From assembly GCA_030613785.1 (NCBI GenBank), contig JAUWLF010000007.1:4191-68190 (forward strand): a stretch of DNA of 64,000 bases. The letters run 5' to 3'. The notes under the pieces are model-generated. The model was not told where the DNA came from. It saw only the letters and a list, made by a program, of their open reading frames with translations, and searched no databases. This stretch comes from Chloroflexota bacterium. Its GTDB lineage: Bacteria; Chloroflexota; Anaerolineae; UBA7937; B3-Chlor. Position 1 is the stretch's first letter; each line of letters begins with the position of its first letter. Positions 9,798-38,568 of this stretch are shown here, piece by piece. Both the position numbers and the translations under genes were made by a program.

Positions 9798-9932
9798 GTC
9801 CGTGGCAGGTGCTCCGACACTTCGTCGCAGTCCTGTGAGTGCGCTCCCTGAGCGAGGACGGCGGCATAGGGGCGGCCGGGGGAACTGTCCTTTGCACGAC
9901 GAAGTCACTTGATCTGTCTGCCAAACTGGACG
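9798..9932 (+). ncRNA. Candidate structured 5' leader (cis-regulatory RNA)
   Basis: Nested complementarities GTCC/GGAC, TGGCAG/CTGCCA, ACTTCGTCG/CGACGAAGT and inner hairpins, starting at the predicted TSS. Confidence 0.4.
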
Positions 9933-9979
9933 AGCCACTTGGCCTCGGGGGGTCGAAAGACAGCATGGAGGGTGTGACC

Positions 9980-11581: not shown

Positions 11582-11596
11582 ATTGGCGAGGTCAGC

Positions 11597-12827: not shown

Positions 12828-12917
12828 GCACGTGGTTTCACTGGCGAACTCGATGGAAAGTCATCTCTCACCCGCCCAAGGAGGGAGATGCAGTCACGGA
12901 CTGGAGGATGGAGAAGT

Positions 12918-14972: not shown

Positions 14973-15010
14973 GCAGAGAGCGAGTCAATTCTCAATCCAG
15001 GAGGTATTCC

Positions 15011-16729
15011 ATGGCTTACAAGGCTGATTCCATTACCATGCAGGTTATCCGCTATGCCATGGAGCAGGCGGCTGATGAGATGGGCCGAACACTAGTCCGC
15101 ACGGCACGCTCGACGGTCATCAAGGAGATCGAGGATATGACGTGCTCCGTCTTCGACCGTTACGGCAATACCATCGCCCAGGCTCACCATGCTCCTATGC
15201 TTCTCACGGGGTTTGAACTTGGGATGCGCGCCCTTGTCGGGAAGTACAAGCCTGAGGATCTCGACCCCGGTGACATGATCATGTTCAACGATCCTTATGC
15301 CGGCGGCCAGCACGTCATGGATATGGTGACCTTTGCGCCGGCCCACTACGACGGGGAGTTGATCGGCTTCGCTGGTAGCATCGCGCATCACTCAGACATG
15401 GGCGGCGCGGTGCCCGGGGGAACGGCCGGCGGACTGACTGAGATCTATCTCGAGGGCCTACGTTTTCCGATGGTCAAGCTGTACAAGAAAGGTGAGGAGG
15501 ACCCTGAACTCTTCGGCATCCTGGAGAACAACATCCGCGTTCCAGACAAGACACTGGGGGACATCCGCGCGCAGGCCTCAGCCGACTTCGTAGGCGTGCA
15601 GAGGCTGCGGGACATTTTTGAGAAGTACGGGGTCGAGGTAGTGCAGAAGTGTCAGGAGATGCTGCTGGACTATTCGGAGAGCCGCATCCGGGCCGGGTTG
15701 AGGAAGATCGCCGACGGCACATACAGCGGTGTGGACTGGATTGACGACGATGGTCAGACTGACGAGCCGATCAGGCTTCAAGTGAATATCCACAAGAAGG
15801 GCGATGAAGTCGCTGTTGATTTCGACGGCACGGCCAAGCAGGTGAAGGGCAATATCAACTGCCCCATAGCCACGGTCCACGCCGCTGTGTACTACGCCCT
15901 CATCGCCGTGATCGATCCCCACGTGCCGCCGAACTCAGGCTGCTATCGCCCTTTCACCGTCGAGGCTGAGGAGGGGCTCATCGTCAACCCACGGATGCCT
16001 GCCGCGGTGGGTGCCCGAACCAATACGTCACAGAAAATCGCTGAGGCGATGATGCTGGCGCTGTCCGAGGTTGTCCCTGATCGTGTTCAAGCCGGCTGTC
16101 ACGGTCAGATTACCAACTGCGGATTCAGCGGCTACCACCCAAGATCGGGAAAGCGCTTCGTCTTCATCGACATCCAGGGTGGTGGCGCAGGTGCTCGACC
16201 CACCAAGGATGGTCGGGATGGTCAGGACTCGCATCTAGCGCGCTTCAAGAACACGCCCATCGAGGCCGTCGAGATGGAGTACCCTGTACGTATCCTGAAA
16301 TACGAGTTCATTGCCGACTCAGGGGGAGCGGGCAAGTACAGGGGAGGCTTGGCCGTACGCCGAGACATCGAGGTGCTCACAGATGACATGTCACTGGCTC
16401 GATATGGCGACCGTCAACGCTTCGGCGCCTTCGGCCTGTTTGGCGGCAAGGAGGGGAGCAAGGGCAAGTTCATACTCAACCCTGACACGCCCGAGGAACG
16501 CCAGCTCAAGTCCAAGGGGCTGGATGTCCTCAACAGCGGAGACGTCGTGAGCCTCCGATTGCCAGGTGCCGGGGGCTACGGCGATCCCCTGGAACGTGAC
16601 CCGGAACTGCTCCTGCAAGATGTCAGAGATGGGAAGGTGACCCTGGAAAGCGCACGGGACGATTACAAGGTGGTCATAGATCCGGACACTTGGCAGATAG
16701 ATGAAGAGGCGACCAAGAAGCTCAGGTGA
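15011..16729 (+). CDS. ATP-dependent hydantoinase/oxoprolinase subunit B (HyuB-like)
   Basis: NDPYAGGQH, AHHSDMGG, EGLRFP, NTPIEAVE and DSGGAGKYRGG. Confidence 0.93.
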   Translation: MAYKADSITMQVIRYAMEQAADEMGRTLVRTARSTVIKEIEDMTCSVFDRYGNTIAQAHHAPMLLTGFELGMRALVGKYKPEDLDPGDMIMFNDPYAGGQHVMDMVTFAPAHYDGELIGFAGSIAHHSDMGGAVPGGTAGGLTEIYLEGLRFPMVKLYKKGEEDPELFGILENNIRVPDKTLGDIRAQASADFVGVQRLRDIFEKYGVEVVQKCQEMLLDYSESRIRAGLRKIADGTYSGVDWIDDDGQTDEPIRLQVNIHKKGDEVAVDFDGTAKQVKGNINCPIATVHAAVYYALIAVIDPHVPPNSGCYRPFTVEAEEGLIVNPRMPAAVGARTNTSQKIAEAMMLALSEVVPDRVQAGCHGQITNCGFSGYHPRSGKRFVFIDIQGGGAGARPTKDGRDGQDSHLARFKNTPIEAVEMEYPVRILKYEFIADSGGAGKYRGGLAVRRDIEVLTDDMSLARYGDRQRFGAFGLFGGKEGSKGKFILNPDTPEERQLKSKGLDVLNSGDVVSLRLPGAGGYGDPLERDPELLLQDVRDGKVTLESARDDYKVVIDPDTWQIDEEATKKLR

Positions 16730-21761: not shown

Positions 21762-21762
21762 G

Positions 21763-22314
21763 ATGGACTTGAAGATGATCCTGGCTGGTGTGGGAGGACA
21801 GGGGGTCCTCTTCGCCACCAGGGTATTCTCCGAGACGGCGCTGGCCCTAGGCTACGATGTGCTGGGCTCGGAAACCCATGGTATGAGCCAGCGAGGAGGG
21901 TCCGTCGTCTCGCATCTGAAGATAGACGGCTACGAGAGCCCTCTGATTCGGCAGGGCACGGCTGATGTCCTGCTCTCCTTCGATGAGGATGAGGCGTACC
22001 GCACCTTAGCTTTTGTCAGACGCGGGGGCCTCTGCTTCGTTAGCAGTCCTCATGGCGATTTCTGGGACAACGGGGTGAAGGCGTACCTGACCAAGAACAA
22101 CATTGCAGCTCACAGCCTTGCAGCCGACGAGATAGCTCTGGAACTGGGCTCTCCGCGGTCTGCCAACCTGGCTCTCATCGGCTATGCTGTGAGCGTTCCG
22201 GAGGTGCGCTTCGGCTACGATGAGATCAAGGCCACGATTGAGCGCATCAGCCCGTCAAGATTCAAGGAGGTCAACTTGAGAGCTTTTGAGGGCGGCTACG
22301 GGAGGAAACAATGA
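21763..22314 (+). CDS. iorB: Indolepyruvate:ferredoxin oxidoreductase beta subunit
   Basis: GVGGQG and SETHGMSQRGGSV. Confidence 0.93.
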   Translation: MDLKMILAGVGGQGVLFATRVFSETALALGYDVLGSETHGMSQRGGSVVSHLKIDGYESPLIRQGTADVLLSFDEDEAYRTLAFVRRGGLCFVSSPHGDFWDNGVKAYLTKNNIAAHSLAADEIALELGSPRSANLALIGYAVSVPEVRFGYDEIKATIERISPSRFKEVNLRAFEGGYGRKQ

Positions 22315-23186
22315 AGTGGGAGAAGTACCTCTTCCCCGCCTCGATTGAAGAGGCCCTGGCGATGCTGGAAGAGCACCAAGGCAGGGCGAGGGTGATTGCT
22401 GGCGGGACAGACCTAGTGCCGGAGCTGAAGCGGAGGGAACGCGAGGTGGAGTGCCTGGTGGACATCAGCCGCCTGGAGGAGTTGAAAGGCATCCAGCTTG
22501 AAGGAGACGTGATCAGGGTCGGTGCCTCCGTCACACACCAACAGTTGGCGGCCTCTGACCTCATCCGCGAAAGGGCCACTGCGTTGGCTGAGGGTGCGCA
22601 TGCGGTTGGATCTCCACAGATACGCTACATGGGCACGGTGGGCGGTAATATCGTCAACGCTCAACCCGCTGCGGACACAGCCATTCCCCTGATGGCCTTG
22701 GATGCAGAGGCTGAGATCGTGAGCTGTGAGGGATCCCGTGCTGAGCCACTGGAGAGCCTATATGTCAGACCAGGGGAATCCACCGTGGACGCCAGTACTG
22801 AGATCCTCGTAGCTTTGCGCTTTCGGGGCTTGGACGGCAATGAAGGCTCCGCCTTCGCTCGGTTGGCAAAGCGAAAGGCTCTGGCGCTGCCCATCTTGAA
22901 CGCGGCGGTGGTAGCCAGCTTGAACGGAGCTGGAACGGCCTTCGAAGAGGTGAGATTGGCCCTCGGCCCCGTGGCCCTCATACCGTTCCGTGCTCGAAAG
23001 GCCGAGGAGGCTCTGCGGGGAAAGGCGATCGAGACTGAGGCCATCGCTTCCGCGTTGGAGATAGCGAGCGAAGAGGCACAGCCGCGAAGCAACCCCTTGC
23101 GGGCCACACGAGAGTATCGCCAAGAGATGGTTAGGGTCTTGCTGAGGCGTGCCCTCCAGAGGGCCGTGGAGTCCGCGCAGTCGTGA
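22311..23186 (+). CDS. Xanthine-dehydrogenase-family Mo enzyme 1, FAD subunit
   Basis: IAGGTDL and GSPQIRYMGTVGGNI..A.PAAD. Confidence 0.9.
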   Translation: MKWEKYLFPASIEEALAMLEEHQGRARVIAGGTDLVPELKRREREVECLVDISRLEELKGIQLEGDVIRVGASVTHQQLAASDLIRERATALAEGAHAVGSPQIRYMGTVGGNIVNAQPAADTAIPLMALDAEAEIVSCEGSRAEPLESLYVRPGESTVDASTEILVALRFRGLDGNEGSAFARLAKRKALALPILNAAVVASLNGAGTAFEEVRLALGPVALIPFRARKAEEALRGKAIETEAIASALEIASEEAQPRSNPLRATREYRQEMVRVLLRRALQRAVESAQS

Positions 23187-23199
23187 GAAAAGGAGGCAG

Positions 23200-23682
23200 A
23201 TGGAACTCGAGGGAGCACGAGCTATGGTATCTCTGACTATGACTCTGAATAACGAGGAGGTCACGATAGAGGTCGGGCCTGACGCGTTGCTGGTGGATGT
23301 GCTGCGCGATCAACTTGAGCTAACGGGAACCAAGGAGGCGTGTGGGGAGGGTGAGTGTGGAGCCTGCACTGTGCTGCTGGACGGAGAACCGGTGACCTCT
23401 TGTCTGGTGCCGGCCCTGAAGGCTCAGGGGCGCGAGGTAATGACAGTAGAGGGCCTGGCCTCCGGCGGGGAACTCCACCCTCTTCAGAAGGCCTTCATCG
23501 AACACGGCGCAGTACAATGCGGGTACTGCACGCCTGGGATGTTGATGTCGGCCAAGGCGTTGCTGGACAAAAACCCGCACCCGACCGAGGGGGAGATCAG
23601 GCAGGCGATCTCTGGTAACCTCTGCCGCTGCACGGGATACGTGAAGATTGTTGAAGCTATCGAGGCGGCTAGCGAAGACTGA
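23200..23682 (+). CDS. Mo enzyme 1, 2x[2Fe-2S] subunit
   Basis: CGEGECGACTV, QCGYCTPG and GNLCRCTGY. Confidence 0.93.
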   Translation: MELEGARAMVSLTMTLNNEEVTIEVGPDALLVDVLRDQLELTGTKEACGEGECGACTVLLDGEPVTSCLVPALKAQGREVMTVEGLASGGELHPLQKAFIEHGAVQCGYCTPGMLMSAKALLDKNPHPTEGEIRQAISGNLCRCTGYVKIVEAIEAASED

Positions 23683-23706
23683 CCAGTTTCTGTGGAGGAA
23701 GTAGTA

Positions 23707-25980
23707 ATGTCGGAAGAGCTCTTCTATGTAGGAAGGCGAGTGCCCAAGCTAGACGCACCGGCCAAGGTCACTGGCCAAGTCGTATACGGCCATGACATGA
23801 AGCTACCGCGGATGCTTCACGGCAAGATCCTCAGGAGCAAGCACGCGCACGCTCGCATATTGAACATCGATACCAGCAGGGCGAAGGCGTTGCCTGGAGT
23901 GAAGGCCGTGATCACCGCTGAAGATACCCCTGAGATCAGGATCGGTTGGGCGCGTGATCATCCCGTTTTGAAATCGGGCAAGGTTCGGTCCATACGGGAT
24001 GAGATTGCCGCGGTGGCGGCCGTCGATGAGTACACTGCGCAAGAGGCTCTAGAACTGATCAAAGTCGAATACGAGGAATTGCCTGGAGTATTCGATCCTG
24101 AAGAGGCCATTAAGCCGGGCGCTCCCATCATTCATGAAGAGGCGCCAAACAACATCCAGGAGAAGATGCGGCAGTCCTATTTCCACGGCGATGTGCACCA
24201 GGGTTTCGTTGAGTCCGATGTCGTGATTGAAGATCGTTTGCGGCTGCCCTTCGTTACCCACTGCTGCATGGGCACTTGCTTCTGTCTGGCCAGTTTCAGC
24301 CCTTCGGGGGACTTGACGGTCTGGAGTTCGACGCAGATGCCCTTCTTATATCAGCGTGACCTGAGCATGGCGCTGGGGATACCGGCCACCAAGATCAGGG
24401 TTATCAAGGTAACGATGGGTGGTGCCTTCGGCAGCAAACTGGACATGTATCCCTTCGAGCCTATCTGCATCCTGCTGGCCCAGAAGACGGGCTGCCCGGT
24501 GAGGATTACCTTCACTCGTGAAGAGGAGTTCATCGCATCTCCGACCCGGCAGCCGGTGATCTGTGACATCAAGAGTGGGGCAAAGAAGGATGGCACTCTG
24601 ATGGCCCGGCAGGTCAGCATGATTCTGGACAATGGCGCGTATAGCTCATGGGGAGCAACGACTCCGCTTGTCATGATGCAGAGCATCTCTTCCCTCTATC
24701 GCGTTCCCAACGTCAAGTATGACGTAGTGGTGGCCTATACCAACAACCTCTACAGCGGCGCAATGAGGGGGTACGGAAACCCTCAGGCCACTTTCGTGAT
24801 CGAGTGCCACATGGACATGCTGGCCCACGAACTGGGTATGGACCCCATGCAGTTTCGGCTGAAGAACGCCAACCAACCCGGCGATGTGACCGGCCAGGGG
24901 GTGAAGATAACCACCTGTGGCCTTACTGAATGCATCGAGAGGGCAGCCGACAGCGTAGCCTGGGTGGAGAAACGGGCCAAGCCGGGGAACCGAGGCGTGG
25001 GTATGGCGGCCATGATTCATGTAGGCGGCGGAGCGCGGATCTATCCGTCCGATGGCTGCGGAAGCACAGTGAAAGTGGATGACTATGGCAAGGTCACCCT
25101 GGTTACTGGCTCCACCGACATGGGACAGGGATCGGAGACGGTCTTGGCCCAGATCGTGGCCGAGGAGTTGGGAGTCCCGGTCGAGAATGTCACGGTGATC
25201 AATACCGACACTGACATCACACCCTGGGACGTGGGAGCCCACGCCAGCCGCACCACTTTCATAGCTGGCAACTCGGCTCGCTTGGCCGCGGCCGATGCCA
25301 AGGGACAGATCTTGGAGGCGGCGGCCCAGAACATAGGCGAGGATGTGGAAGACCTGGATATGAAGGACGGCAAGATCTTCCGCAAGGGAGAGCCTGAGGA
25401 ATGGATTCCCTTCGCCAAGATGGTGCGCAGCAAGCACTTCCGCCCCGATGGGGATGTGATCTTGGCCAAGGGTTGGTACGAGCCTCCCACAGAGAGACAG
25501 GACAAAGAGTTCCGCGGCAACATCTCGGCTACCTATGGTTTCGCTGCTCAAGCTGTTGAGGTCGAGGTGGACACGGAGACCGGCGAGGTGACGGTGCTGA
25601 AGATCGCGGCTGCCCACGACGTAGGACGAGCCATTAATCCCATGGCGGTGGAGGGGCAGATCCATGGCGGAGTGTCCATGGGTCTGGGATATGGGCTCTA
25701 TGAGGAACTAGTCGTGCAAGAGGGGGAGGTGCTCAACCCTAACTTCGCCGACTATGCGCTGCCTACAGCCCTCGACATGCCTCCCATCGAGTCGATCATC
25801 ATCGAGACCGATGATCCTGCTGGTCCTTTTGGTGCCAAGGGGATGGCGGAGCCGGCCTGCATACCCACGGCCCCGGCCATTGTCAATGCCGTCTATGACG
25901 CGGTCGGGGTGAGGATTCGAGACCTCCCCATCACCCCAGAGAAGGTATTGAATGCTCTGAAGGAGAAGGAGGCGAGATGA
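23707..25980 (+). CDS. Mo enzyme 1, molybdopterin-binding large subunit (candidate indole-ring hydroxylase)
   Basis: SSTQ, GGAFGSK, AMRGYG, GAHASR and KGMAE with catalytic Glu retained. Confidence 0.9.
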   Translation: MSEELFYVGRRVPKLDAPAKVTGQVVYGHDMKLPRMLHGKILRSKHAHARILNIDTSRAKALPGVKAVITAEDTPEIRIGWARDHPVLKSGKVRSIRDEIAAVAAVDEYTAQEALELIKVEYEELPGVFDPEEAIKPGAPIIHEEAPNNIQEKMRQSYFHGDVHQGFVESDVVIEDRLRLPFVTHCCMGTCFCLASFSPSGDLTVWSSTQMPFLYQRDLSMALGIPATKIRVIKVTMGGAFGSKLDMYPFEPICILLAQKTGCPVRITFTREEEFIASPTRQPVICDIKSGAKKDGTLMARQVSMILDNGAYSSWGATTPLVMMQSISSLYRVPNVKYDVVVAYTNNLYSGAMRGYGNPQATFVIECHMDMLAHELGMDPMQFRLKNANQPGDVTGQGVKITTCGLTECIERAADSVAWVEKRAKPGNRGVGMAAMIHVGGGARIYPSDGCGSTVKVDDYGKVTLVTGSTDMGQGSETVLAQIVAEELGVPVENVTVINTDTDITPWDVGAHASRTTFIAGNSARLAAADAKGQILEAAAQNIGEDVEDLDMKDGKIFRKGEPEEWIPFAKMVRSKHFRPDGDVILAKGWYEPPTERQDKEFRGNISATYGFAAQAVEVEVDTETGEVTVLKIAAAHDVGRAINPMAVEGQIHGGVSMGLGYGLYEELVVQEGEVLNPNFADYALPTALDMPPIESIIIETDDPAGPFGAKGMAEPACIPTAPAIVNAVYDAVGVRIRDLPITPEKVLNALKEKEAR

Positions 25981-27170
25981 AGGATCTGTTCACCGATATC
26001 ACGGTGCTGAGCATGGAGCAGGCGACCGTCCTGCCGTATCTCACCTACAGATTGGCTGCTGAGGGCATGAGGGTCATCAGGGTGGAACATCCGGAGCGAG
26101 GTGATCCCAACCGGCTGGTCGGTACCAATGTCCTCGGAGAGGAGGGGATGGATAGCTACTTTCTACCCAACAACGTGGGTAAGAAGGCCATCACCCTGAA
26201 CCTGAGAGGCGAGGAAGGGCCGGCGATCTTGCGTGACCTGATTCTCGAGTTGGATGTGGATGTCTTCGCCTCCAACATGTTGCCGCGGAACTATGCCAAG
26301 CTAGGAATATCCTACGAGCAACTCAGAGCCATCAAGGAAGACATCATCTGGATCGGTATGACTGGCTTCGGGCCGCAGAGTAATGAAGCGGCTTATGACC
26401 CCATCCTGCAAGCCAGGGCTGGGATCATGGACCTGACCGGTGAGCGCGATGGCCCCCCACAGGTGTTTGGGCTGCCCATGGCCGACCTGGGGGCGAGCGA
26501 GCAAGGTTATGGCCAGATCATGAGAGCGCTGTACATTCGGCAGGCCACTGGCGAAGGTTCGCGGGTGGACATTTCCATGTTCCAGAGCTTGGGCTCCTGG
26601 GAGGTGAATCCTGTCATGCTCGCCAAGAGCTTCGGCGCGGAGATCACGCGGCGGGGGAACACTCACGAGTTCTTTGCCCCGGTCTCAGTGTATGAGACCA
26701 AGGATGGATACGTCTACATCGCTGTCGGCAATGACCGGCAGTGGCAGGCCATGACCGAGCTATCAGGGTTCGAGTCGCTAAATCGAGAAGAGCGCACGGT
26801 GAACGCCGGGCGGATAAAGGATGTGGACCGTCTGAATGCCGAGATAAGCGAGATAACTAGGACGAGGATGACCAATGAGCTCATAGAACTGTTCAACAGC
26901 ATAACTGTTCCCATCTCCACAGTTAGTAGCATTGACGACGTAATAGAAGACCCTCTTGTCAAGGACAAGATGATAACAGCCAAGGATCCCCGCACTGGCA
27001 GGGAGGTCTTCTTGCCACCAACGCCGGTTATCACCCCTTACCTGGAGTCGGCGGGAATGCAGATGTCCTTCCCTCCGCGTATGGGCGAGCACAACGAGGA
27101 GATCTACGGAGACATCCTGGGATACGATGCCCAGAAGATGAACGAGTTGAAAGGGGCTGGTGTGATCTGA
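25977..27170 (+). CDS. Class III CoA-transferase (CaiB/BaiF)
   Basis: NNVGKKAITL, AYDPILQA, Asp in PMADL and PPRMGEHN. Confidence 0.88.
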   Translation: MKDLFTDITVLSMEQATVLPYLTYRLAAEGMRVIRVEHPERGDPNRLVGTNVLGEEGMDSYFLPNNVGKKAITLNLRGEEGPAILRDLILELDVDVFASNMLPRNYAKLGISYEQLRAIKEDIIWIGMTGFGPQSNEAAYDPILQARAGIMDLTGERDGPPQVFGLPMADLGASEQGYGQIMRALYIRQATGEGSRVDISMFQSLGSWEVNPVMLAKSFGAEITRRGNTHEFFAPVSVYETKDGYVYIAVGNDRQWQAMTELSGFESLNREERTVNAGRIKDVDRLNAEISEITRTRMTNELIELFNSITVPISTVSSIDDVIEDPLVKDKMITAKDPRTGREVFLPPTPVITPYLESAGMQMSFPPRMGEHNEEIYGDILGYDAQKMNELKGAGVI

Positions 27171-27202
27171 TGAGCCTTTCTGGCAAAGGAGCAGAGTCTG
27201 AG

Positions 27203-28318
27203 ATGCAGGAACTGACGCTCAATGAGAATCTGTTGGCCGCGCCTGTCCATGTGGCCGGCAAACCTATAGAGGAAGTGCGGAGGGAATATGGTCTAGAGAG
27301 GATCATCAAGCTGGCCTCGAACGAGAACCCTCTCGGCCCATCGCCTCTGGCCGTGGAAGCGATCAAGAAGGCTCTCCCAAACGCCCATCGGTATCCGGGA
27401 ACAGTCGAAGCCAATTTGCGTGCGAGGCTGGCCCAGCTCATGGGCGGCGACTTTGACGAAGACAACATCATCATCGGCAATGGTTCGTGCGACGTGCTGC
27501 GTATGGTATGCCTGGCTTTCCTGCATGACGGAGGCGAGAGTGTTGTTTGTCCCTCCACGTTTCCCATGTACAGGATCTACACTCAGATGTTTGGTGGCAA
27601 CCTGGTGCCAGTCGAGGCTCGGGACTATGCCTATGATCTGCCTGCGATGGTGGAGAAGATCGGTGACGCCACGAGGTTGATCTTCGTTTGCAATCCCAAC
27701 AATCCCACAGGCACGATGCTGACCCAGCAGCAGGTTGATGATTTCATGGAGCAAGTGCCCGAGCGGGTGGTAGTGGTGGTCGATGAGGCGTACTACGATT
27801 ACGTTGCTGACGAGCACTACGCCAGCGTCAAGGAGTACATTGAGGAGGGCCGCAACGTCATCTTGACGCGAACCTTCTCCAAGATCCATGGCTTGGCCGG
27901 TCTTCGAGTGGGATATGGCGTTGCCAAGAAGGAGATGATCCAATACTTGCAACACGCCCGTTCACCCTTCCATGTGGGGTCGGTGAACCTGATCGGAGCC
28001 ACAGCTAGCCTGGATGATGTAGAACACATACAGCGGAGCAGAACGCTGAACGCGGCCGAGAAAGAATACCTCTACGAGCAGTTCGACAGACTGGATCTGC
28101 GCCACATTCCCTCTGAAACCAATTTCATACTGCTTCCGGAGTTGAGGCACGACGCGGTGGCTATGAGCGAGGCGCTCTTACGTCAAGGGGTGATCGTGCG
28201 TCCGGCAGGCGGTTTCGGTGTCCCGGGAGCCATTCGAGTGACCATAGGTACGAGGGAGGAGAACGAGCGCCTCGTGTGGGCGCTGGAACAGGTACTGCAC
28301 GAACTGACAGAGGGGTGA
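27203..28318 (+). CDS. Class I/II PLP aminotransferase, HisC-like (probable aromatic amino-acid aminotransferase)
   Basis: KLASNENPLG, NPNNPTG, DEAY and RTFSKIHGLAGLRVGY; no other his genes nearby. Confidence 0.85.
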   Translation: MQELTLNENLLAAPVHVAGKPIEEVRREYGLERIIKLASNENPLGPSPLAVEAIKKALPNAHRYPGTVEANLRARLAQLMGGDFDEDNIIIGNGSCDVLRMVCLAFLHDGGESVVCPSTFPMYRIYTQMFGGNLVPVEARDYAYDLPAMVEKIGDATRLIFVCNPNNPTGTMLTQQQVDDFMEQVPERVVVVVDEAYYDYVADEHYASVKEYIEEGRNVILTRTFSKIHGLAGLRVGYGVAKKEMIQYLQHARSPFHVGSVNLIGATASLDDVEHIQRSRTLNAAEKEYLYEQFDRLDLRHIPSETNFILLPELRHDAVAMSEALLRQGVIVRPAGGFGVPGAIRVTIGTREENERLVWALEQVLHELTEG

Positions 28319-28376
28319 TTCGCTTCCATGGCACGAGGCGTTGAGGAAGCGGGATTCCGCGTCAGAGTAGTGGATC

Positions 28377-29516
28377 ATGGATTTCGGGTTCACCCAGGAT
28401 CAGGAGCTCTTGAAGAGCAGCGTGGCGAGTTTCGTGGACAGGGAGGTCATCCCCGCTGCGGCCCGGATCGATGAGGAGGGCCGCTTTCCCGGCGAGCTAT
28501 TCCGGAAGGCGGGTGAACTGGGGTATTTCGGGATTCGCTATCCAGGGACGTACGGCGGCTCGGGCGGGGACAACGTGATGTTCGCTTTGATGTGCGAGGA
28601 ACTGGCCAGGGGCTGCATGAGTCTGGCCGCCAGTGTTGTCATGCAGTGTCTGATGGGCACTAGTTTCGTTCACCGTTTTGGGACGGAGAAGCAAAGACAG
28701 CAATTGCTTGTTCCCGCCATCCGAGGCGAGAAAATCGGGGTCATCGCCATGACTGAGCCCGATGCCGGGTCTGACCTGGGAGCCATCACAACCAGCGCCT
28801 GCCGCGATCACGACGGCTACGTCTTGAAAGGGCGCAAGACGTGGGTCACCAACGCCAGCCTGGCTGATTTCTTCACGGTGGCTGCCAAGACTGATCCCGA
28901 AGCCGGATTCAGGGGCATTGACATGTTCTTGGTGGAAAAGGAGAGGCCTGGCGTCAGTATCGGAAAGGACATCGCCAAGATGGGGGTGCGGGGTCTAGGG
29001 ACTGGTGAGTTGATCCTGGAGGATTGCCGCATCCCCGCCGACAACCTTTTCGGCAAGGAGGGAACTGGCTTTCGGAACCTGCAAGGGATCCTGGAGGAGA
29101 TCCGCATCATGATGGGATCATTGAGCCTGGGCCTGGGGCAAGCTGCTCTGGACGGGGCCGTGCGATATGCTCAGGAGAGAGTCCAGTTCAACCGTCCCAT
29201 CGCCAAGTTCCAAGCCATCTCCCACAAGTTGGCGGATATGGCTACACAGTTGGAAGCCGCCAGGCTGCTGGTCTATCGGGCGGCCTGGCTTGTTGATCAG
29301 GATGAGCGAGACATGAAACTGGCTTCCATGGCCAAGCTGTTCGCCTCGGAGATGGCCAACCAAGTCGCCGACGGTGCCTCTCGCATCTTCGCCAGCTACG
29401 GGTTCGCCATGGAGTATGATGCACAGCGGTACTTTCGCGACGCACGGTTCCTATTGCTTGGTGGAGGAACATCGGAGGTCCTACGAGGGATCATTGCCTA
29501 CCAGATGTGCCTGTGA
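28377..29516 (+). CDS. Acyl-CoA dehydrogenase family protein 1 (no canonical catalytic Glu)
   Basis: AMTEPDAGSD, GRKTWVTN, RVQFNRPI and GGGTSE. Confidence 0.9.
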   Translation: MDFGFTQDQELLKSSVASFVDREVIPAAARIDEEGRFPGELFRKAGELGYFGIRYPGTYGGSGGDNVMFALMCEELARGCMSLAASVVMQCLMGTSFVHRFGTEKQRQQLLVPAIRGEKIGVIAMTEPDAGSDLGAITTSACRDHDGYVLKGRKTWVTNASLADFFTVAAKTDPEAGFRGIDMFLVEKERPGVSIGKDIAKMGVRGLGTGELILEDCRIPADNLFGKEGTGFRNLQGILEEIRIMMGSLSLGLGQAALDGAVRYAQERVQFNRPIAKFQAISHKLADMATQLEAARLLVYRAAWLVDQDERDMKLASMAKLFASEMANQVADGASRIFASYGFAMEYDAQRYFRDARFLLLGGGTSEVLRGIIAYQMCL

Positions 29517-29568
29517 GGCCGATCATAGAGGCGTAGGCGCCATTACCACTGAAGGGAGCTGAGGAACG

Positions 29569-30714
29569 ATGGATTTCGATTTCACTCCTGAACAAGAGCT
29601 TTTCCGTCAGAGCGTGAGGGAGTTCGCCGACAGATATGTCCGTCCACGCATCAAGGAAATGGAGGAGAAGGGGGACGTTCCCCAAGGTCTAATGCAGCAG
29701 ATGGCCGAGCAAGGTTTCTACGGCATCCGCTATGCAGAGGAGTGGGGTGGACAGGGTGGGGACAATGTCATGTTCGCTATCCTCAACGAGGAACTGGCAC
29801 GCTGCTACATGAGTGTGGCAGCCAGGTGCATGATGCAATGCCTCATGGGCACCGAGTTCATCAACCTCTATGGCACCGAGGAGCAGAAGCGGAACTTCCT
29901 CGTCCCGGCCATCAGGGGGGAGAAGTACGGTACGCTGGCCATCACTGAACCGGCTGGCGGAACAGACCTGGGGGCCATGCAGACGCTTGCCGTGCGGGAC
30001 GGCGATGAGTACGTCATCAACGGCCAGAAGACCTGGATTACCGGCGCACATGTGGTCGACTTTTTCACCATAGCCGCCAAGACCGACCCTGAAGCAGGGT
30101 TCAGGGGTGTGGACATGTTTCTCGTGGACAGGCACACCCCGGGCGTAAGAGTGGGTGATCGAATCGAGAAGCTGATCGCGTTCGCTTCGGGGTGTTATGA
30201 GCTGTTCTTCGACGATGTGCGGATTCCGGCGGATCGGCTGTTCGGAGGAGAGGAGGGCGAGGGTTTCGCGCTGCTACGCAGTATCCTGAACGATATTCGC
30301 GTCCACACCGCTGCTCTAGGCTTGGGGATAGCCCGAGCTGCCTACGAGGAATCGGTGGAGTACGCAAAGCAGCGTGTGGCCTACGGACGCCCCATCATCA
30401 AGTGGCAGGCCATACAGCACAAGCTGGCTAGGATGAGGATTGACATAGACGCGGCCAAGCTGATGATCTACTGCGCTGCCTGGCGAATGGATCAGGGCTT
30501 TCCGGTCAATGTCGAGGCTGCCACCGCCAAGTGGTTCATCACGGAGGCGGTGTTGAGGATTGTTGATGATGCCACTCGCATTTTCGGGGCCTATGGTGCC
30601 TCAATGGACATGAACGCCCAGAGGTACTTGCGTGACGCGCGGTGGCTTCTCTACGGTGGCGGGACGCAGACGATGATTCTCAACATCATCGGCATTGAGA
30701 TAGGCAAGGAGTAG
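29569..30714 (+). CDS. Acyl-CoA dehydrogenase family protein 2, paralog of the previous gene
   Basis: AITEPAGGTD, GQKTWIT and YGGGTQ; shares GGDNVMFA, MQCLMGT and KTDPEAGFRG with protein 1. Confidence 0.9.
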   Translation: MDFDFTPEQELFRQSVREFADRYVRPRIKEMEEKGDVPQGLMQQMAEQGFYGIRYAEEWGGQGGDNVMFAILNEELARCYMSVAARCMMQCLMGTEFINLYGTEEQKRNFLVPAIRGEKYGTLAITEPAGGTDLGAMQTLAVRDGDEYVINGQKTWITGAHVVDFFTIAAKTDPEAGFRGVDMFLVDRHTPGVRVGDRIEKLIAFASGCYELFFDDVRIPADRLFGGEEGEGFALLRSILNDIRVHTAALGLGIARAAYEESVEYAKQRVAYGRPIIKWQAIQHKLARMRIDIDAAKLMIYCAAWRMDQGFPVNVEAATAKWFITEAVLRIVDDATRIFGAYGASMDMNAQRYLRDARWLLYGGGTQTMILNIIGIEIGKE

Positions 30715-30729
30715 CAGACGGAGGGAAAG

Positions 30730-31719
30730 ATGGGGCTGCCCAAGTTCGAACATCTGCAACCGGAGTCGTTGGACGAGGCCCTGGGAGTGCTCTCTGAACA
30801 TGGGGAGCAGGCCAAGATCATCGCTGGTGGAACTGAGCTTCTGGTGTCCATGAAGCAGGGCTTGCTGACTCCGAACTATCTGGTGAACCTGAAGGCGATT
30901 CCCGAGCTAAGCTTCATCGCGTACGATGAAGAGAGAGGGCTGCGCATCGGCGCACTCACCAAGTTGACCACACTGACGAGTTCCCAGGTGATACAGGACG
31001 GTTTCTCGATCTTGGCGCAGACGGCCAATTTGGTGGCTGCTCCTCCTCTTCAGAACATGGGTACCCTGGGGGGTAATCTCTGCCTCAATACGAGGTGCTT
31101 CTACTACAATCAGTCACAGTTCTGGAGGCAAGCTCGACCCCGCTGCTATAAGACCGGCGGGGATCTGTGTCACGTGGTGAAGGGTGGAAACCGGTGTTTC
31201 GCGACGTACCAGGGGGACATGGCTCCAGCTCTGATCGCCCTCGAAGCCACCGTCAAGATAGCGAAGAGGGGCGGCGAGCGAGTCATCCCGCTGGCTGACC
31301 TCTACACTGGAAAGGGGAAGCGACCTCTGGCCCTGAAGGCCAACGAAATGCTGGTTGAAGTGCAGGTGCCTATGTCAGCCTCTGCGTGGTCCGGCGAATA
31401 CCAGAAGCTCCGCTACCGTGGGGCGATGGATTTCCCACTGGCGGGGGTAGCCGCTGTTGTCGGAAGAGATGGTTCTGAAACCTGCTCCAAGGCTGGCGTG
31501 GTGCTGACCGCTGTCGGCACAGGCCCCATCCTCGTGGAGGAAGCCAGCGTGCTTCTTGAAGGGCAGGGGGTAACCGACGAACGGGTGGCCCAGGTCGCAA
31601 GCGCGGCCCACGAGGTGGCTCGTCCTGTGGACAACATTGGCAGCGACCCCTCATACAGGAGGAAGATGGTTCGCGTTCTCACGAAGAGGGCCCTAGTGAA
31701 TGCGTGGGAAAGGGAATGA
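30730..31719 (+). CDS. Mo enzyme 2, FAD subunit with [4Fe-4S] insertion (HcrB-like)
   Basis: GGNLCLNTRCFYYNQSQFWRQ...CYK.GG..CHV....RC insertion typical of the 4-hydroxybenzoyl-CoA reductase beta subunit. Confidence 0.88.
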   Translation: MGLPKFEHLQPESLDEALGVLSEHGEQAKIIAGGTELLVSMKQGLLTPNYLVNLKAIPELSFIAYDEERGLRIGALTKLTTLTSSQVIQDGFSILAQTANLVAAPPLQNMGTLGGNLCLNTRCFYYNQSQFWRQARPRCYKTGGDLCHVVKGGNRCFATYQGDMAPALIALEATVKIAKRGGERVIPLADLYTGKGKRPLALKANEMLVEVQVPMSASAWSGEYQKLRYRGAMDFPLAGVAAVVGRDGSETCSKAGVVLTAVGTGPILVEEASVLLEGQGVTDERVAQVASAAHEVARPVDNIGSDPSYRRKMVRVLTKRALVNAWERE

Positions 31720-31722
31720 GTC

Positions 31723-32190
31723 ATGGAAAAGCAGCTTATCCAGTTGACCGTGAACGGTGAGGATCATGATGTCGTCGTTACACCCAACCAGACGCTGGTT
31801 GATGTGCTACGGGAGGATCTAGAGCTGACTGGGACCAAGGTGGGATGCGACGAGGGGGCCTGCGGAACCTGCACCGTGCTCATGGATGGAAAGCCCGTGC
31901 GTTCCTGCCTCACTCTCGCTGTCGAAGCACAGGGGAAGTCGATCGAGACCATCGAGGGGCTGGCTTCAGGTGGAGAGTTGCATCCTGTGCAGAAGGCCTT
32001 CATTGAACACGGGGCCATCCAGTGTGGCTTCTGCACTCCGGCCATGATCCTGACCAGCAAGGCGTTTCTTGAGCAGAACCCCCATCCCACAGAGGAGGAA
32101 GTGAGACGCGCCATCTCGGGTGTGGTGTGTCGCTGTACTGGATACGCCAAGATCGTGGAAGCAATCATGGCGGCAGCGGGAGAGTCTTAG
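31723..32190 (+). CDS. Mo enzyme 2, 2x[2Fe-2S] subunit (HcrC-like)
   Basis: GCDEGACGTC, QCGFCTP and CRCTGY. Confidence 0.92.
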   Translation: MEKQLIQLTVNGEDHDVVVTPNQTLVDVLREDLELTGTKVGCDEGACGTCTVLMDGKPVRSCLTLAVEAQGKSIETIEGLASGGELHPVQKAFIEHGAIQCGFCTPAMILTSKAFLEQNPHPTEEEVRRAISGVVCRCTGYAKIVEAIMAAAGES

Positions 32191-32207
32191 AAAGGAAGGA
32201 CGGCACC

Positions 32208-34487
32208 ATGGCAGAGCATACTCTTGTCGGCCAGCGGGTGGTGAGGATCGATTCCCGGGCCAAGGCGACCGGGCAGGCTCGCTACACGGCGGACTTGACC
32301 CTTCCCCGCATGCTATGTGGCAAGGTGCTGAGGAGCCCGCACGCTCATGCCAGGATCCTTAACATCGATACCAGCAAGGCCGAGAGACTTCGCGGTGTGA
32401 GGGCAATTGTGACCGGGAAGGACGCGGCAGGAGTGAAATGGGGGGTGTTCGGTTATACTCGCGATCAAGAGCTTCTGACTCGCGACAAGGTTCGGTACAT
32501 CGGAGAAGACGTGGCAGCAGTGGCGGCCGAGGACGAGGACACCGCTGTGGAGGCCTTGAAGCTGATCGAGGTGGAGTATGAGGTCCTGCCCGCCGTCTTC
32601 GACCCCCTTGAGGCCACACAGGAAGGTGCACCCCAGATCCACGATCACGCCGAAAACAACATCAATATCCATGTGCCCATTGAAATAGGGGACGTTGATA
32701 AGGCGTTCAGGGACGCGTACTACGTGAGAGAGGACCGCTTTGTCAATACCGAATACGGCTACTGTCAGACTGAGCCGTACGCTGTACTAGCCAGCTACGA
32801 CTCGGACGGCAACTTGGAGATATGGACACCCAACGCCTCTCCACACACCAAGGCCAAGGCACTGTCGAATCTGTTGCAGAAACCTCTGAGCAAGGTCAAA
32901 GTGCGAAAGGTCTATACAGGCGGGGCCTTCGGCGGTCGCTCGGATATCTTCCCTGGCGAGTTTATCGCCGCCCTCTTGACCATGAAAGCTCGCAGACCGG
33001 TGAAGTTGGTCTACACGAGAGAGGAGAGCTTCACTAGCGTGAGACAGGTGCACTCCATGGTCGTGGACCTGAAGACAGGTGTGGCCGAGGACGGGAGGCT
33101 TCTGGCCAACGAGATCAAGGTCGTCATGGACGGAGGGGCATACAGCAGCACAGGACCGATCGCCACCTCGGTGCCCTTCCTCGTCTGGGAGGAGACGTAT
33201 CGTCTACCCAATGTCCGCTTCAACGGGTACCGCGTGTATACTAACAAGCCCGTTCGAGGGATGTACCGCTGTCACGGGCGAGCCTTTCTCGGGGGGCTGG
33301 GGATGCAGTTGGACATGATCGCTGAGGAGTTGGGCATTGATCCGGTAGAGATGCGTCTGAGGAACGCCCTCACTACCGGAGACACCCAGGCCACGGGTTC
33401 GAAGATCATCAGTTGCGGCCTCAGCGAGGCGATGGAACAAGCGGCTGAGGAATCCGGGTGGAAGCACAAGCGGGGAAAGCTGCCCCATGGCAAGGGGATC
33501 GGCATGGGTGCTAACGGCATGATGGTGGGGTTTCCGATGGGCATACGCGGTGGTTCGTCGGCCATGATCAAGTTCAACGAGGATGCGGGAGCCACACTCA
33601 TCTCAGGGGTGGTGGACAACGGCCAGGGCAACGAGAGCATGGTGGTGCAGGTCGCGGCTGACGTGCTTGGTTTGAAGATGGAGGACATCAACCTAGTATG
33701 CTCGGATTCGGAGATTACTCCTCTGGATCAGGGCGCGTACTCCCAAGCCGCCGCTTTTGTCTCCGCGAATGCGGCCATGGGGGCGGCTATAGACTCTAGA
33801 GAGCAGATTCTGGAGATCGCCTCTGAGATGCTGGACGCAACCGTTGACGAGTTGGACCTCAGAGATGGCTACGTCTTCGTGAAGGAAAGACCCGAGCGGA
33901 ACATGTGGATGGGCAAGGCCATTCGCAAAGCGCTGATCGAGGATACCCCGATCATGGGCCGAGGCTCGTACATGCCCAAGGTCGATCAGAGGCGGGAGTG
34001 GGTCAGTAACCCCCGAGGACAGCACGCTGGCACCTTCAGCTTTGGAGCTGTCATCGCAGAGGTGGAGGTGGACACTGAGACCGGACAGGTGAGAGTGACC
34101 AACGTCACTGGTGCCCATGACTGCGGTTTCGCCATCAATCCCATGGCTGTAGAGGGGCAACTGGAGGGTTCCGTTGCTTCAGGAGGAGTGGGGGCGACGT
34201 TGCTCGAGGAGCACTCCTGGGACGGCGGACAGATGCTGAACGCCAACATGCTGGAGTACAAGGTACCTCTCTCCGTGGATATGCCTCAGATCACGCCTAT
34301 CATTGTGGAAACGATCGACCCCGAGGGCCCATTTGGGGCCAAGGAAGCCGGCTTATGGGGTTCCATGAACATGTTCCAGGCCATCGGCAACGCCATCTAC
34401 GATGCCGTGGGCGTCTGGATCAAGGAGTTTCCCATCACTCCGGACAAGGTGCTCGCTGCGCTTGAGGAGAAGGACAAGGACCGATGA
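32208..34487 (+). CDS. Mo enzyme 2, molybdopterin-binding subunit (HcrA-like, atypical active site)
   Basis: GW..KRGKLP.GKG, SDSEITPLDQGAYS and GPFGAKEAG resemble HcrA; active-site loop MYRCHG. Confidence 0.85.
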   Translation: MAEHTLVGQRVVRIDSRAKATGQARYTADLTLPRMLCGKVLRSPHAHARILNIDTSKAERLRGVRAIVTGKDAAGVKWGVFGYTRDQELLTRDKVRYIGEDVAAVAAEDEDTAVEALKLIEVEYEVLPAVFDPLEATQEGAPQIHDHAENNINIHVPIEIGDVDKAFRDAYYVREDRFVNTEYGYCQTEPYAVLASYDSDGNLEIWTPNASPHTKAKALSNLLQKPLSKVKVRKVYTGGAFGGRSDIFPGEFIAALLTMKARRPVKLVYTREESFTSVRQVHSMVVDLKTGVAEDGRLLANEIKVVMDGGAYSSTGPIATSVPFLVWEETYRLPNVRFNGYRVYTNKPVRGMYRCHGRAFLGGLGMQLDMIAEELGIDPVEMRLRNALTTGDTQATGSKIISCGLSEAMEQAAEESGWKHKRGKLPHGKGIGMGANGMMVGFPMGIRGGSSAMIKFNEDAGATLISGVVDNGQGNESMVVQVAADVLGLKMEDINLVCSDSEITPLDQGAYSQAAAFVSANAAMGAAIDSREQILEIASEMLDATVDELDLRDGYVFVKERPERNMWMGKAIRKALIEDTPIMGRGSYMPKVDQRREWVSNPRGQHAGTFSFGAVIAEVEVDTETGQVRVTNVTGAHDCGFAINPMAVEGQLEGSVASGGVGATLLEEHSWDGGQMLNANMLEYKVPLSVDMPQITPIIVETIDPEGPFGAKEAGLWGSMNMFQAIGNAIYDAVGVWIKEFPITPDKVLAALEEKDKDR

Positions 34488-34927
34488 AACTTCGGGCCAT
34501 AGATCATCTGTGCATCGCGGTCAAGGACTTGGAGAAAGCGCGCCGCGCGTATGAAGAGGACCTGGGGCTGGAGTTGCACAGCCTCTACGAGGCGGAGAGC
34601 GAGAAGATCAAGGTAGCGCGCTACTATCTAGGAGACGTGGCTTTGGAGTTGATCCAGGCCACTTCTTCGGACAGCGAGGTGGCCAAGTTCCTCCGGAAGC
34701 GCGGTGAGGGTTTCTTCCTGATCTCGTACCGAGTGGATGACGTAGAGGACGCCCTGGCCGAGTTGAAAGCAAAGAGAGTGAAGACGATTGACCAACGGCC
34801 CCGTCGCGTGAAGGGCAACCGATATGCCTTCATCCACTATCCCGCAGAACTCGCCGGAGTGCTCACGGAAGTGCTGGACGGGGAATTCAAGTGCGACGAG
34901 GAGGACAATGCAGAAGAGGCCGGTTAG
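34484..34927 (+). CDS. VOC-family methylmalonyl-CoA epimerase-like protein
   Basis: IDHLCIAV, LELIQ, KFLRKRGEG and GVLTE; adjacent to the mutase B12 subunit. Confidence 0.82.
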   Translation: MKLRAIDHLCIAVKDLEKARRAYEEDLGLELHSLYEAESEKIKVARYYLGDVALELIQATSSDSEVAKFLRKRGEGFFLISYRVDDVEDALAELKAKRVKTIDQRPRRVKGNRYAFIHYPAELAGVLTEVLDGEFKCDEEDNAEEAG

Positions 34928-35306
34928 GGTGTTGGTGGCGAAGCCAGGTCTGGATGGTCACGATCGAGGGGCCAAGGTCGTTGCCCACGCCTTGCGTGAC
35001 GCTGGCATGGAGATCATCTACACGGGCCTGCACCAGACGGTGGAGCAGATCGTGGAGGCAGCGCTGCAAGAAGATGTGGATGTGCTCGGCCTTTCCGTCC
35101 TATCGGGAGCTCATCTGCCTTTGACCGAGAAGCTCATGGGGCTGCTGAGTGAGAAGGGCTTGGACGATCTAGTGGTTATCGTGGGGGGCAACATCCCCCG
35201 TGGGGACATACAGAAGCTGGAGGCCTTGGGAGTGGACCGGGTGTTCCGTACCGGTTCACGCTTCGATGACATGGTTAGCTTCATTGAGGAGAGTGTCGGC
35301 GAGTGA
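34908..35306 (+). CDS. Cobalamin-binding small subunit of acyl-CoA mutase
   Basis: KPGLDGHDRG (DxHxxG), LSVLSGAH and VGGNIP. Confidence 0.95.
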   Translation: MQKRPVRVLVAKPGLDGHDRGAKVVAHALRDAGMEIIYTGLHQTVEQIVEAALQEDVDVLGLSVLSGAHLPLTEKLMGLLSEKGLDDLVVIVGGNIPRGDIQKLEALGVDRVFRTGSRFDDMVSFIEESVGE

Positions 35307-35360
35307 CGCACCGACAGGGACGCGTCATGCTCTGCATGTCTTCCGCAGCACCTTGTCAGA

Positions 35361-36506: not shown

Positions 36507-36636
36507 GTCTTCCTGCCCCTCTGAGCGCTAGTCTGTATGAGCGCCCCAATGATTGGCCGGAGAAGGCGTGTCCCACAGACGCCACCGCTTTCATGCGGGC
36601 TGCCAAAGGGAGCACGTGATTCTGGCCCCGACTGGT

Positions 36637-38170: not shown

Positions 38171-38443
38171 ATGGCTTACATCATCGATCCGGAGGAGTGC
38201 ATCGCCTGCGCTGCTTGCGAGGAGGAATGCCCAAACGAGGCTATCAGCGAGGGGGATGAGGTCTACGTCATAGAGGCTGACAAGTGCACGGAGTGCGTTG
38301 GCTTCTTTGAGGAGTCGCAATGCGCACTGGTCTGCCCCGTGGATGCCTGCGTGCCTGACCCGGATCACGAAGAGAGCCACGACGACTTGGTGGCGAAGTT
38401 CAAGAAGGTGCATCCCGACAAGGAACCCAAGCTCTTCCAATAG
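38171..38443 (+). CDS. 2x[4Fe-4S] ferredoxin, Alvin/YfhL type
   Basis: CxxCxxCxxxCP and CxxC-x8-CxxxCP with C-terminal helix; AAGGAG SD; TATAAT at ~38100. Confidence 0.93.
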   Translation: MAYIIDPEECIACAACEEECPNEAISEGDEVYVIEADKCTECVGFFEESQCALVCPVDACVPDPDHEESHDDLVAKFKKVHPDKEPKLFQ

Positions 38444-38492
38444 ACACAGTGAGAGCTCTGAGGGATGTTGCCTTCGAAGGCCATCGCCAGCC

Positions 38493-38544: not shown

Positions 38545-38568
38545 ATCCCTGGTGAGTGTGTAAAGTAG

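Follow-up and report, generated by a model that had tools for sequence, protein, structure and literature searches.

Our analyses support the recognition of a distinct and conserved subfamily of xanthine-oxidase-family enzymes, related to 4-hydroxybenzoyl-coenzyme A (CoA) reductase (Hcr), which, judged from sequence, forms part of a pathway of strict anaerobes resembling anaerobic indoleacetate degradation (iaa-like). Its representative is encoded in a 64,000-nucleotide stretch of a Chloroflexota bacterium contig (JAUWLF010000007.1), the whole of which is called the window hereafter. The three-subunit variant enzyme, with genes at 30730-34487 of the + strand, is designated X2, and the neighbouring canonical enzyme at 22311-25980 is designated X1. 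Members of the X2 clade have lost the catalytic glutamate, the conserved glutamine and an active-site arginine of their family, under strong selective constraint. We tentatively read X2, with somewhat less than even confidence, as a ferredoxin-driven Hcr-type reductase that would strip either 2-aminobenzoyl-CoA or 2-aminocinnamoyl-CoA of its ortho amino group.

Hcr reductively removes an aromatic hydroxyl group using low-potential ferredoxin. Cell extracts were described in the early 1990s as carrying out the reductive deamination of 2-aminobenzoyl-CoA, a reaction that, to our knowledge, has never been assigned to a protein. In xanthine-oxidase-family enzymes the conserved glutamine acts on the oxo group of the molybdenum (Mo) centre. 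The conserved glutamate, in the available part of the published account, activates the labile oxido group and is the proposed proton donor in oxygen abstraction (PMC10420851). This glutamate is kept in both known reductive members of the family, 4-hydroxybenzoyl-CoA reductase (from our alignment with HcrA) and urolithin C dehydroxylase (PMC11760930).

Results

A variant three-subunit enzyme of the Hcr type

The three X2 genes are co-directional and almost abut one another, and the first of them codes for an insert typical of HcrB:

30730..31719, + strand: flavin adenine dinucleotide (FAD) subunit, HcrB-like, 329 amino acids; Pfam FAD_binding_5 and CO_deh_flav_C
31081..31209, + strand: HcrB-type [4Fe-4S] insert in the FAD subunit, about 40 residues (118-160), with Cys123, Cys139, Cys147 and Cys156
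31723..32190, + strand: subunit bearing a pair of [2Fe-2S] clusters, 155 amino acids; Pfam Fer2 and Fer2_2
32208..34487, + strand: large pterin-binding subunit, HcrA-like, 759 amino acids; Pfam Ald_Xan_dh_C, MoCoBD_1 and MoCoBD_2

The open reading frame of the large subunit begins at a GTG codon (32127), but the ATG at 32208 was preferred as the start because the relatives are 758-760 amino acids long. The protein has the domain architecture of the xanthine oxidase family (PF01315, PF02738 and PF20256, with E values from 6.8e-30 to 8.4e-64), and its top match among solved structures is HcrA of Thauera aromatica (PDB 1rm6_A, E 1.1e-147, 496.7 bits, the next match reaching 282.6 bits). Likewise, the FAD subunit finds HcrB as its top solved match (PDB 1rm6_B, E 4e-60), with which the insert aligns cysteine for cysteine at all five cysteines. 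The four cysteines of the insert are present in the nine X2-linked FAD subunits that were found (window, L001-L003 and L005-L009; L numbers designate loci), while in the same alignment the FAD subunit of X1 has no such insert.

Despite this overall likeness to HcrA, the HMMER alignment of the two large subunits revealed replacements in four active-site motifs:

32829..32837, + strand: TTQ of HcrA replaced by PNA, with Ala210 in place of the family glutamine (TQ motif)
33261..33278, + strand: AMRGHG loop of HcrA replaced by MYRCHG, with Cys355 at the family glycine, flanked by Arg354 and His356
33741..33749, + strand: SSR of HcrA replaced by SQA, with loss of the arginine
34341..34358, + strand: KEASEG of HcrA replaced by KEAGLW, with Leu716 in place of the catalytic glutamate

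A further arginine, at position 281, is valine in X2. Among the other family representatives, the glutamine is found in 119 of 148, the arginine of SSR in 124 and the glutamate in 132. Cys355 falls at the site of Gly534 in the aldehyde oxidoreductase of D. gigas (1sij_A), between Arg533 and Tyr535, and aligns with the loop cysteine of a CoxL protein (8uem_A; YACSFR against YRCHGR). An earlier note, made from the letters of the window alone, had described the HcrB-type insert, the HcrA-like large subunit, these four replacements and the correspondence of the loop cysteine to that of CoxL; every one of these observations was borne out by the alignments, the loop at exactly the coordinates given.

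The overall organization of X2 is that of HcrCAB of T. aromatica (PDB 1RM6/1SB3), with three subunits and a [4Fe-4S] loop in the FAD subunit; the histidine of the xRGHG-type loop and the KEA motif are common to HcrA and X2, and an inverted, ferredoxin-driven electron flow would also be shared by inference. Automatic annotation accordingly names its relatives 4-hydroxybenzoyl-CoA reductase (the Joint Genome Institute, JGI, does so for many clade members), and HcrA, HcrB and HcrC are indeed the best solved or NCBIfam matches of the three X2 subunits. All three nevertheless score below the NCBIfam equivalog cut-offs (TIGR03194, alpha, 700.8 against 994.55; TIGR03195, beta, 301 against 404.55; TIGR03193, gamma, 192 against 257.8). 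X2 also differs from HcrA in having Ala for Gln, SQA for SSR, Leu for the catalytic Glu, Cys for the loop Gly and Val for Arg281, and its genes stand in an indoleacetate-type context, Pfam and NCBIfam annotation of the neighbours having disclosed no phenol or 4-hydroxybenzoate genes near X2. That X2 is an ordinary 4-hydroxybenzoyl-CoA reductase is therefore hardly credible, and the suspicion already voiced in the earlier note that it departs from the standard enzyme appears sound on these scores.

Conservation and selective constraint in the X2 clade

Among 1.84 billion cluster representatives, three clusters exceeded 50% identity to the X2 large subunit (P0004, 66%; P0005, 54%; P0006, 51%; P numbers designate protein representatives). 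All three are devoid of the glutamine, the SSR arginine and the glutamate, and the usual motifs return from the fourth match onwards (at most 46% identity). We assembled 243 clade rows, consisting of 123 rows with at least 51% identity (the window protein being counted twice) and 120 delta-type rows; the clade is common in metagenome-assembled genomes (MAGs) of Anaerolineae, Syntrophorhabdaceae and Desulfomonilaceae. The glutamine, the SSR arginine and the glutamate are absent from all 243 rows. The glutamine column holds Ala (121) or Ser (2) in the 123 rows and Ala in 120 of 120 delta-type rows, and the glutamate column holds Leu (100), Met (21), Ile (1) and a gap (1) in the former and Leu in 119 of 120, with one gap, in the latter; the SSR arginine was found in 0 of 123 and 0 of 120 rows, respectively. 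Across 76 loci, the X2 pattern occurred in nine of nine clade genes as against none of 58 other large-subunit genes.

The active-site loop is less uniform. His356, common to HcrA, is nearly invariant in the clade, whereas the cysteine is present in 77 of the 123 rows and 109 of the 120 delta-type rows, Ser, Thr, Ala, Ile or Gln standing in its place elsewhere. At position 354, where the family's arginine is 97% conserved, all 120 delta-type rows have Gly. Loci of the same gene context differ at the cysteine as well, with YGSHG in L002, IRIHG in L004 and L005, and YGAHG in L007. Of the conservation of YRCHG and KEAGL that the earlier note had put forward for examination, the loss of the glutamate thus held throughout, but the cysteine did so in 186 of 243 rows only.

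This variation bears on the proposal that the YRCHGR loop forms a bimetallic site of the CoxL kind, in which the cysteine would bind copper or another metal bridged to Mo. The Cu-binding loop motif of CoxL is AYRCSFR. Form I Mo-Cu carbon monoxide dehydrogenase shares with X2 its fold, a loop cysteine at the same aligned place and the pattern Y-x-C-x-x-R (8uem_A), and it was on this cysteine as a possible copper ligand that the earlier note had laid emphasis. CoxL is, however, an aerobic, oxidative enzyme without a [4Fe-4S] loop, which keeps the glutamine, the arginine and the glutamate (TTQ, GSR and GE) where X2 has PNA, SQA and GL. The CoxL profile TIGR02416 scores 260.1 bits on X2 against a cut-off of 991.15, and the cysteine is missing from 57 of 243 rows, loci of identical context included. 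That emphasis is consequently weakened, and a CoxL-like bimetallic site in X2 seems very unlikely.

Outside the replaced motifs the protein is well preserved. Of 179 positions conserved in the family (at least 75% in the 148 other representatives), 160 are kept in X2, including GGxFGG, GQG and the C-terminal GAK; the 19 that changed include Q210A, R281V, G355C, F362G, A363G, E365G, S513Q, R514A and E716L. Conversely, at 50 positions the clade is fixed (90% or more of the 243 rows) for residues found in less than 10% of the others. The ratio of nonsynonymous to synonymous substitution rates (dN/dS) was 0.056, 0.067 and 0.104 against three orthologues from Anaerolineae (L003, L001 and L002, respectively), at dS values of 1.3-1.7, near saturation. 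The X2 clade is under strong purifying selection. Decay into a pseudogene, which the substitutions would have suggested had they been unique to this genome, is ruled out by the clade-wide fixation of the replacements, the positions kept and a dN/dS of about 0.06.

Constraint of this kind also helps to assess whether the X2 large subunit has lost catalysis at its metal site and persists as a Mo-free or inert scaffold, a regulator or an electron-transfer module. The disappearance of the Gln, the Glu and two Arg, along with the loop Arg in many members, speaks for such a loss, as do other lineages of the family without the glutamate (14 further representatives of 150, with 4 Gln, 4 Met, 3 Asp, 1 Arg, 1 Ala and 1 Asn at that column). 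On the other side stand the low dN/dS, the clustering of the 50 newly fixed positions in the same motifs, the retention of the pterin-binding glycine motifs, and the FAD/[4Fe-4S] and double [2Fe-2S] partners, kept in nine of the nine cases in which a partner was found. Since an electron chain so preserved would be purposeless without a terminal redox site, an inert paralogue appears improbable, and the non-catalytic subunit offered as an alternative in the earlier note loses most of its appeal.

Lineages without the glutamate do occur elsewhere in the family, with patterns other than that of X2. A group from Thermoanaerobaculia/Acidobacteria combines KRGHG and SSR with Gln for the catalytic Glu (GQG; L046, L049, L052, L053, L055, L064, L066, L070 and also L027), and the representatives P0033, P0057 and P0089 have Met at the catalytic position.

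Origin and nearest relatives of X2

The large subunits of X1 and X2 are 42% identical. Each belongs to a clade of its own (99-100% support), and since the two clades are widely separated in both trees, an origin of X2 as a tandem duplicate of X1 was ruled out. The sister of the X2 clade is the branch comprising P0008 and L061 (98% support in the Shimodaira-Hasegawa-like approximate likelihood ratio test, SH-aLRT), and support for the deeper branching of X2 relative to the HcrA-like clade is weak (65-92%).

The L061-type group comprises 122 relatives (P0397-P0516, P0008 and P0092), with MAG names pointing to Syntrophorhabdales, Syntrophobacterales and Desulfatiglans; one member carries the name of an uncultured Desulfatiglans. 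The group shares with X2 the loss of the SSR arginine (121 of 122), the loss of Arg281 (121 of 122) and often that of the glutamine, which is Met in 64 of 122, but differs in keeping the glutamate (121 of 122) and both the loop arginine and the loop glycine (122 of 122). L061 itself (6134-13712) has an insert-bearing FAD subunit. Its neighbours are two aryl-type CoA ligases, a TetR regulator and a tripartite ATP-independent periplasmic (TRAP) transporter, and no iaa-like genes were seen in this locus. Its position beside aryl-type CoA ligases suggests that the lineage acts on aryl-CoA esters, and the L061-type group may represent another aryl-CoA defunctionalising reductase.

Genomic context of X2

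X2 is contained in a + strand operon (9839-35306), whose genes were assigned with Pfam and NCBIfam. The operon opens with an acyl-CoA mutase large subunit, a family III CoA-transferase, hydantoinase/caprolactamase-type A and B proteins, a V4R protein, a TrpB-like protein and a serine-kinase-like protein. It continues with the alpha and beta subunits of an indolepyruvate:ferredoxin oxidoreductase, X1, a second CoA-transferase and a HisC-type aminotransferase, and closes with two acyl-CoA dehydrogenases, X2, a glyoxalase-fold epimerase-like gene and a B12-binding mutase subunit. The features that accompany X2 are as follows:

9839..16729, + strand: iaa-like genes for acyl-CoA mutase large subunit, family III CoA-transferase and hydantoinase/caprolactamase-type A/B (Pfam, NCBIfam)
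19851-22314, + strand: indolepyruvate:ferredoxin oxidoreductase (NCBIfam)
22311..25980, + strand: X1, with FAD subunit, 2Fe-2S subunit and a large subunit keeping TQ, MRGYG, ASR and Glu (Pfam, NCBIfam, alignment)
25977..30714, + strand: second CoA-transferase, HisC-type aminotransferase and two acyl-CoA dehydrogenases (Pfam, NCBIfam)
34484..35306, + strand: immediately downstream of X2, a glyoxalase-fold (methylmalonyl-CoA-epimerase-like) gene and the small, B12-binding subunit of the mutase
38171..38443, + strand: YfhL/Alvin-type 2[4Fe-4S] ferredoxin, candidate electron donor (NF033683, 105.6 bits, cut-off 86)

In the available portions of the published descriptions, the iaa pathway proceeds from indoleacetyl-CoA through ring hydroxylation, lactam hydrolysis and CoA transfer, and then through a B12-dependent rearrangement to (2-aminobenzyl)malonyl-CoA, which IaaF converts to 2-aminocinnamoyl-CoA on the way to 2-aminobenzoyl-CoA (PMC8360864, PMC9613470, PMC5214803). 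Corresponding components are present in the operon of X2, namely a two-subunit B12 mutase, a family III CoA-transferase, a hydantoinase-like ATP-dependent lactamase A/B and a hydroxylase of the xanthine oxidase family. Furthermore, both acyl-CoA dehydrogenases (28377-29516 and 29569-30714) carry GGG in place of YEG (...LGGGT... and ...YGGGT...), a replacement that the accessible part of one account names as the IaaF signature, IaaF being the benzylmalonyl-CoA dehydrogenase that acts when indoleacetate is degraded anaerobically (PMC8360864). The same portion of that source also places iaa operons in strict anaerobes (PMC8360864). We judge the operon to be of the anaerobic indoleacetate type from its protein families and the GGG signature.

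A PaaK-like indoleacetate-CoA ligase (IaaB) was not found in the operon of the window, which holds indolepyruvate:ferredoxin oxidoreductase and aminotransferase genes instead. At 17490-22314 and 27170-28318 the operon also codes for a TrpB-like (TrpB2-type) pyridoxal-phosphate enzyme and a serine-kinase/SbnI-like protein, in company with the HisC-type aminotransferase and the oxidoreductase. TrpB2 uses phosphoserine. As a set, these four could convert indole and phosphoserine to tryptophan and then to indoleacetyl-CoA, replacing the CoA ligase anaerobically. The tandem IaaF-type dehydrogenases (28377-30714) are both kept in L001 and L003, and only one was found in L002; the pair may assemble as a heteromer or divide the work between them. 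The small V4R-domain protein (16739-17242), whose gene follows those of the lactamase and precedes the TrpB-like one, may serve in ligand binding or regulation.

The ferredoxin, with the pattern CxxCx8CxxxC, lies 3.7 kb downstream of X2 and has homologues at the matching relative position in L001 and L003. It is followed by a DUF1786 protein with an N-terminal motif like those of actin-fold ATPases (the pair spanning 38171-39627), and this pair is kept in L003 (14561-15930). Farther downstream, at 42303-53285, a glutamate dehydrogenase gene precedes NuoE-like, NuoF-like, 2Fe-2S/4Fe-4S, HdrA-MvhD fusion, FrhB-like, GXGXG and glutamate-synthase flavin mononucleotide (FMN)-domain genes, which by their families resemble a flavin/Fe-S complex, perhaps electron-bifurcating, that is coupled to glutamate synthase. 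An Rfam scan of the window and of L001, L002, L006 and L008 returned two tRNAs only and no molybdenum-cofactor or B12 riboswitch. A promoter and terminator scan of 28000-39000 gave 3 and 6 sites where 3.3 and 5.3 were expected, and was thus uninformative.

Among the matches listed from genome contigs, nine loci contain a full X2 gene; they derive from MAGs of Anaerolineae and of Thermodesulfobacteriota/'Deltaproteobacteria'. An X1 orthologue and iaa-like genes accompany X2 in eight of these nine. The X2 loci also hold varied combinations of lactamase, mutase, MeaB, glyoxalase, PaaK-like ligase and TRAP transporter genes, a glyoxalase gene following or adjoining the X2 genes in L001-L004, L007, L008 and L041. 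PaaK-like ligases were recorded in L005, L006, L007, L008 and L056. In L009 the X2 trio occurs without X1, preceded only by an acyl-CoA ligase. Conversely, X1 is found without X2 within the retrieved flanks of L056, L048 and L014, of which L056 carries an otherwise complete iaa-like set (mutase, IaaF-like dehydrogenase, ligase and lactamase). Because X1 orthologues occur without it, X2 is accessory, although tied to the iaa-like pathway, as a downstream step would be. Beside the X2 module of L007 (4961-7374), and between the X2 FAD and 2Fe-2S genes of L037 (4163-6596), we found a class-III aminotransferase and a saccharopine-dehydrogenase-like gene. In L002, the gene directly after that of the X2 large subunit (12207-13436) codes for a protein of 409 amino acids, in which 300 N-terminal residues without a family match precede a C-terminal 2x[4Fe-4S] domain.

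The frequent company of the two enzymes raises the question of whether X2 is an obligate partner of X1, either as a second oxidative hydroxylase or through a hetero-complex of both large subunits. Adjacency in eight of the nine loci is what such a partnership would produce, and the two large-subunit genes are directly consecutive in L004 and L006. Each enzyme nevertheless occurs without the other, as just described, and they belong to distant clades. Moreover, the general base that hydroxylation needs is missing from X2, which possesses its own electron-entry module of the Hcr type. An obligate partnership with X1 is, on this evidence, quite unlikely.

Discussion

The favoured, tentative reading of X2 as a reductase acting on a 2-aminoaryl-CoA thioester combines the altered active site with the gene context. 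The residues that handle Mo-bound oxygen, the Glu acting as base or proton donor and the Gln on the oxo group, are gone, for which reason the metal site of X2 probably no longer transfers an oxygen atom. Their loss would favour a leaving group other than oxygen, and the only such group that the pathway offers in conjugation with a thioester is the ortho amino group. With an iaa-like neighbourhood and 2-aminobenzoyl-CoA as the end product, a reductive step on a 2-aminoaryl-CoA is the most natural guess.

In the proposed mechanism, a low-potential ferredoxin, locally the Alvin-type ferredoxin at 38171, would supply the electrons, and the indolepyruvate:ferredoxin oxidoreductase (19851-22314) could reduce it. 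As in 4-hydroxybenzoyl-CoA reductase, electrons would then pass from the [4Fe-4S] cluster to FAD, on to the two [2Fe-2S] clusters and finally to the pterin-metal site. There they would drive a Birch-like reduction in which the thioester loses its ortho amino group. The substrate could be 2-aminobenzoyl-CoA or its precursor 2-aminocinnamoyl-CoA, yielding benzoyl-CoA or cinnamoyl-CoA, respectively, plus ammonia, with Cys355 and His356 as possible proton donors or extra ligands. By analogy with quinolone chemistry, early deamination would also avoid the cyclisation of intermediates of the 2-aminobenzoylacetyl-CoA type.

A further step would be to regard X2 as the first xanthine-oxidase-family enzyme to work without the catalytic Glu and Gln, as one that cleaves an aryl C-N bond and as the orphan 2-aminobenzoyl-CoA deaminase, maybe with new first-shell ligands (Cys, Ser or Thr at position 355). 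This combination of claims, drawn from the motifs and the gene neighbourhood, is possible but rather doubtful.

Several observations weigh against reductive deamination. Its substrate has been deduced from gene neighbours alone, some iaa-like loci are without X2, and the Aromatoleum pathway, in the available part of its published description, is set out without an X2-type enzyme (PMC8360864). The loop cysteine is not universal and, as noted, the loop arginine is Gly in every delta-type row; the site may be altered more deeply than by a change of leaving group, and Mo could be absent from it. The aminotransferase and saccharopine-dehydrogenase-like genes at X2 in L007 and L037 hint at other amine chemistry.

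Some of these observations would fit better if X2 were a redox enzyme of the iaa-like pathway acting on another intermediate or in another reaction, for example one that reduces a double bond in the ring or side chain, or an aminotransferase-linked step. The evidence from context and cofactors is the same for this alternative as for deamination; the aminotransferase and saccharopine-dehydrogenase-like neighbours would find a place in it, and the loss of the loop arginine in many members suggests a strongly altered site. These neighbours were, however, seen in only two of the examined loci, and removal of the amino group is, as far as the accessible part of the source goes, the sole step of the pathway known to need a low-potential reductant (PMC8360864). 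We consider another redox step in the pathway a plausible minority alternative, which is unlikely on balance.

The idea of reductive deamination by a protein of the Hcr kind has a precedent. Hcr-like proteins of Desulfatiglans anilini are induced by aniline or 4-aminobenzoate and, in the portion of the source available, were proposed from proteomics only, unassayed, as a 4-aminobenzoyl-CoA reductase (PMC7500099). This candidate resembles our reading of X2 in being Hcr-like and in the proposed reductive deamination of an aminobenzoyl-CoA, with the difference that the amino group is para rather than ortho. In the searchable literature, whose coverage leaves out the primary iaa papers, it was the only proposal of an aminobenzoyl-CoA reductive deaminase found (PMC7500099); within the same coverage no characterised member of the X2 clade was found, so that a prior mention in those papers is possible. 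The urolithin C dehydroxylase of Enterocloster bolteae (Ucdh/UcdCFO), on the other hand, differs from X2 in keeping the glutamate (E741), in having no [4Fe-4S] loop and in acting on a substrate that is not a CoA ester (PMC11760930).

Should the reading of X2 as a deaminating reductase prove true, a protein would be assigned to an orphan reaction of anaerobic aromatic metabolism, the reductive deamination of aminobenzoyl-CoA, which joins the breakdown of tryptophan, indole, auxin and anthranilate to the benzoyl-CoA pathway in strict anaerobes. It would likewise follow that catalysis on the xanthine oxidase scaffold is possible in the absence of the Glu/Gln pair by which its mechanism is defined. 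Finally, the widespread automatic name 4-hydroxybenzoyl-CoA reductase would be corrected for many members of the clade, and this would alter how the fermentative or syntrophic turnover of tryptophan-derived compounds is read from metagenomes.

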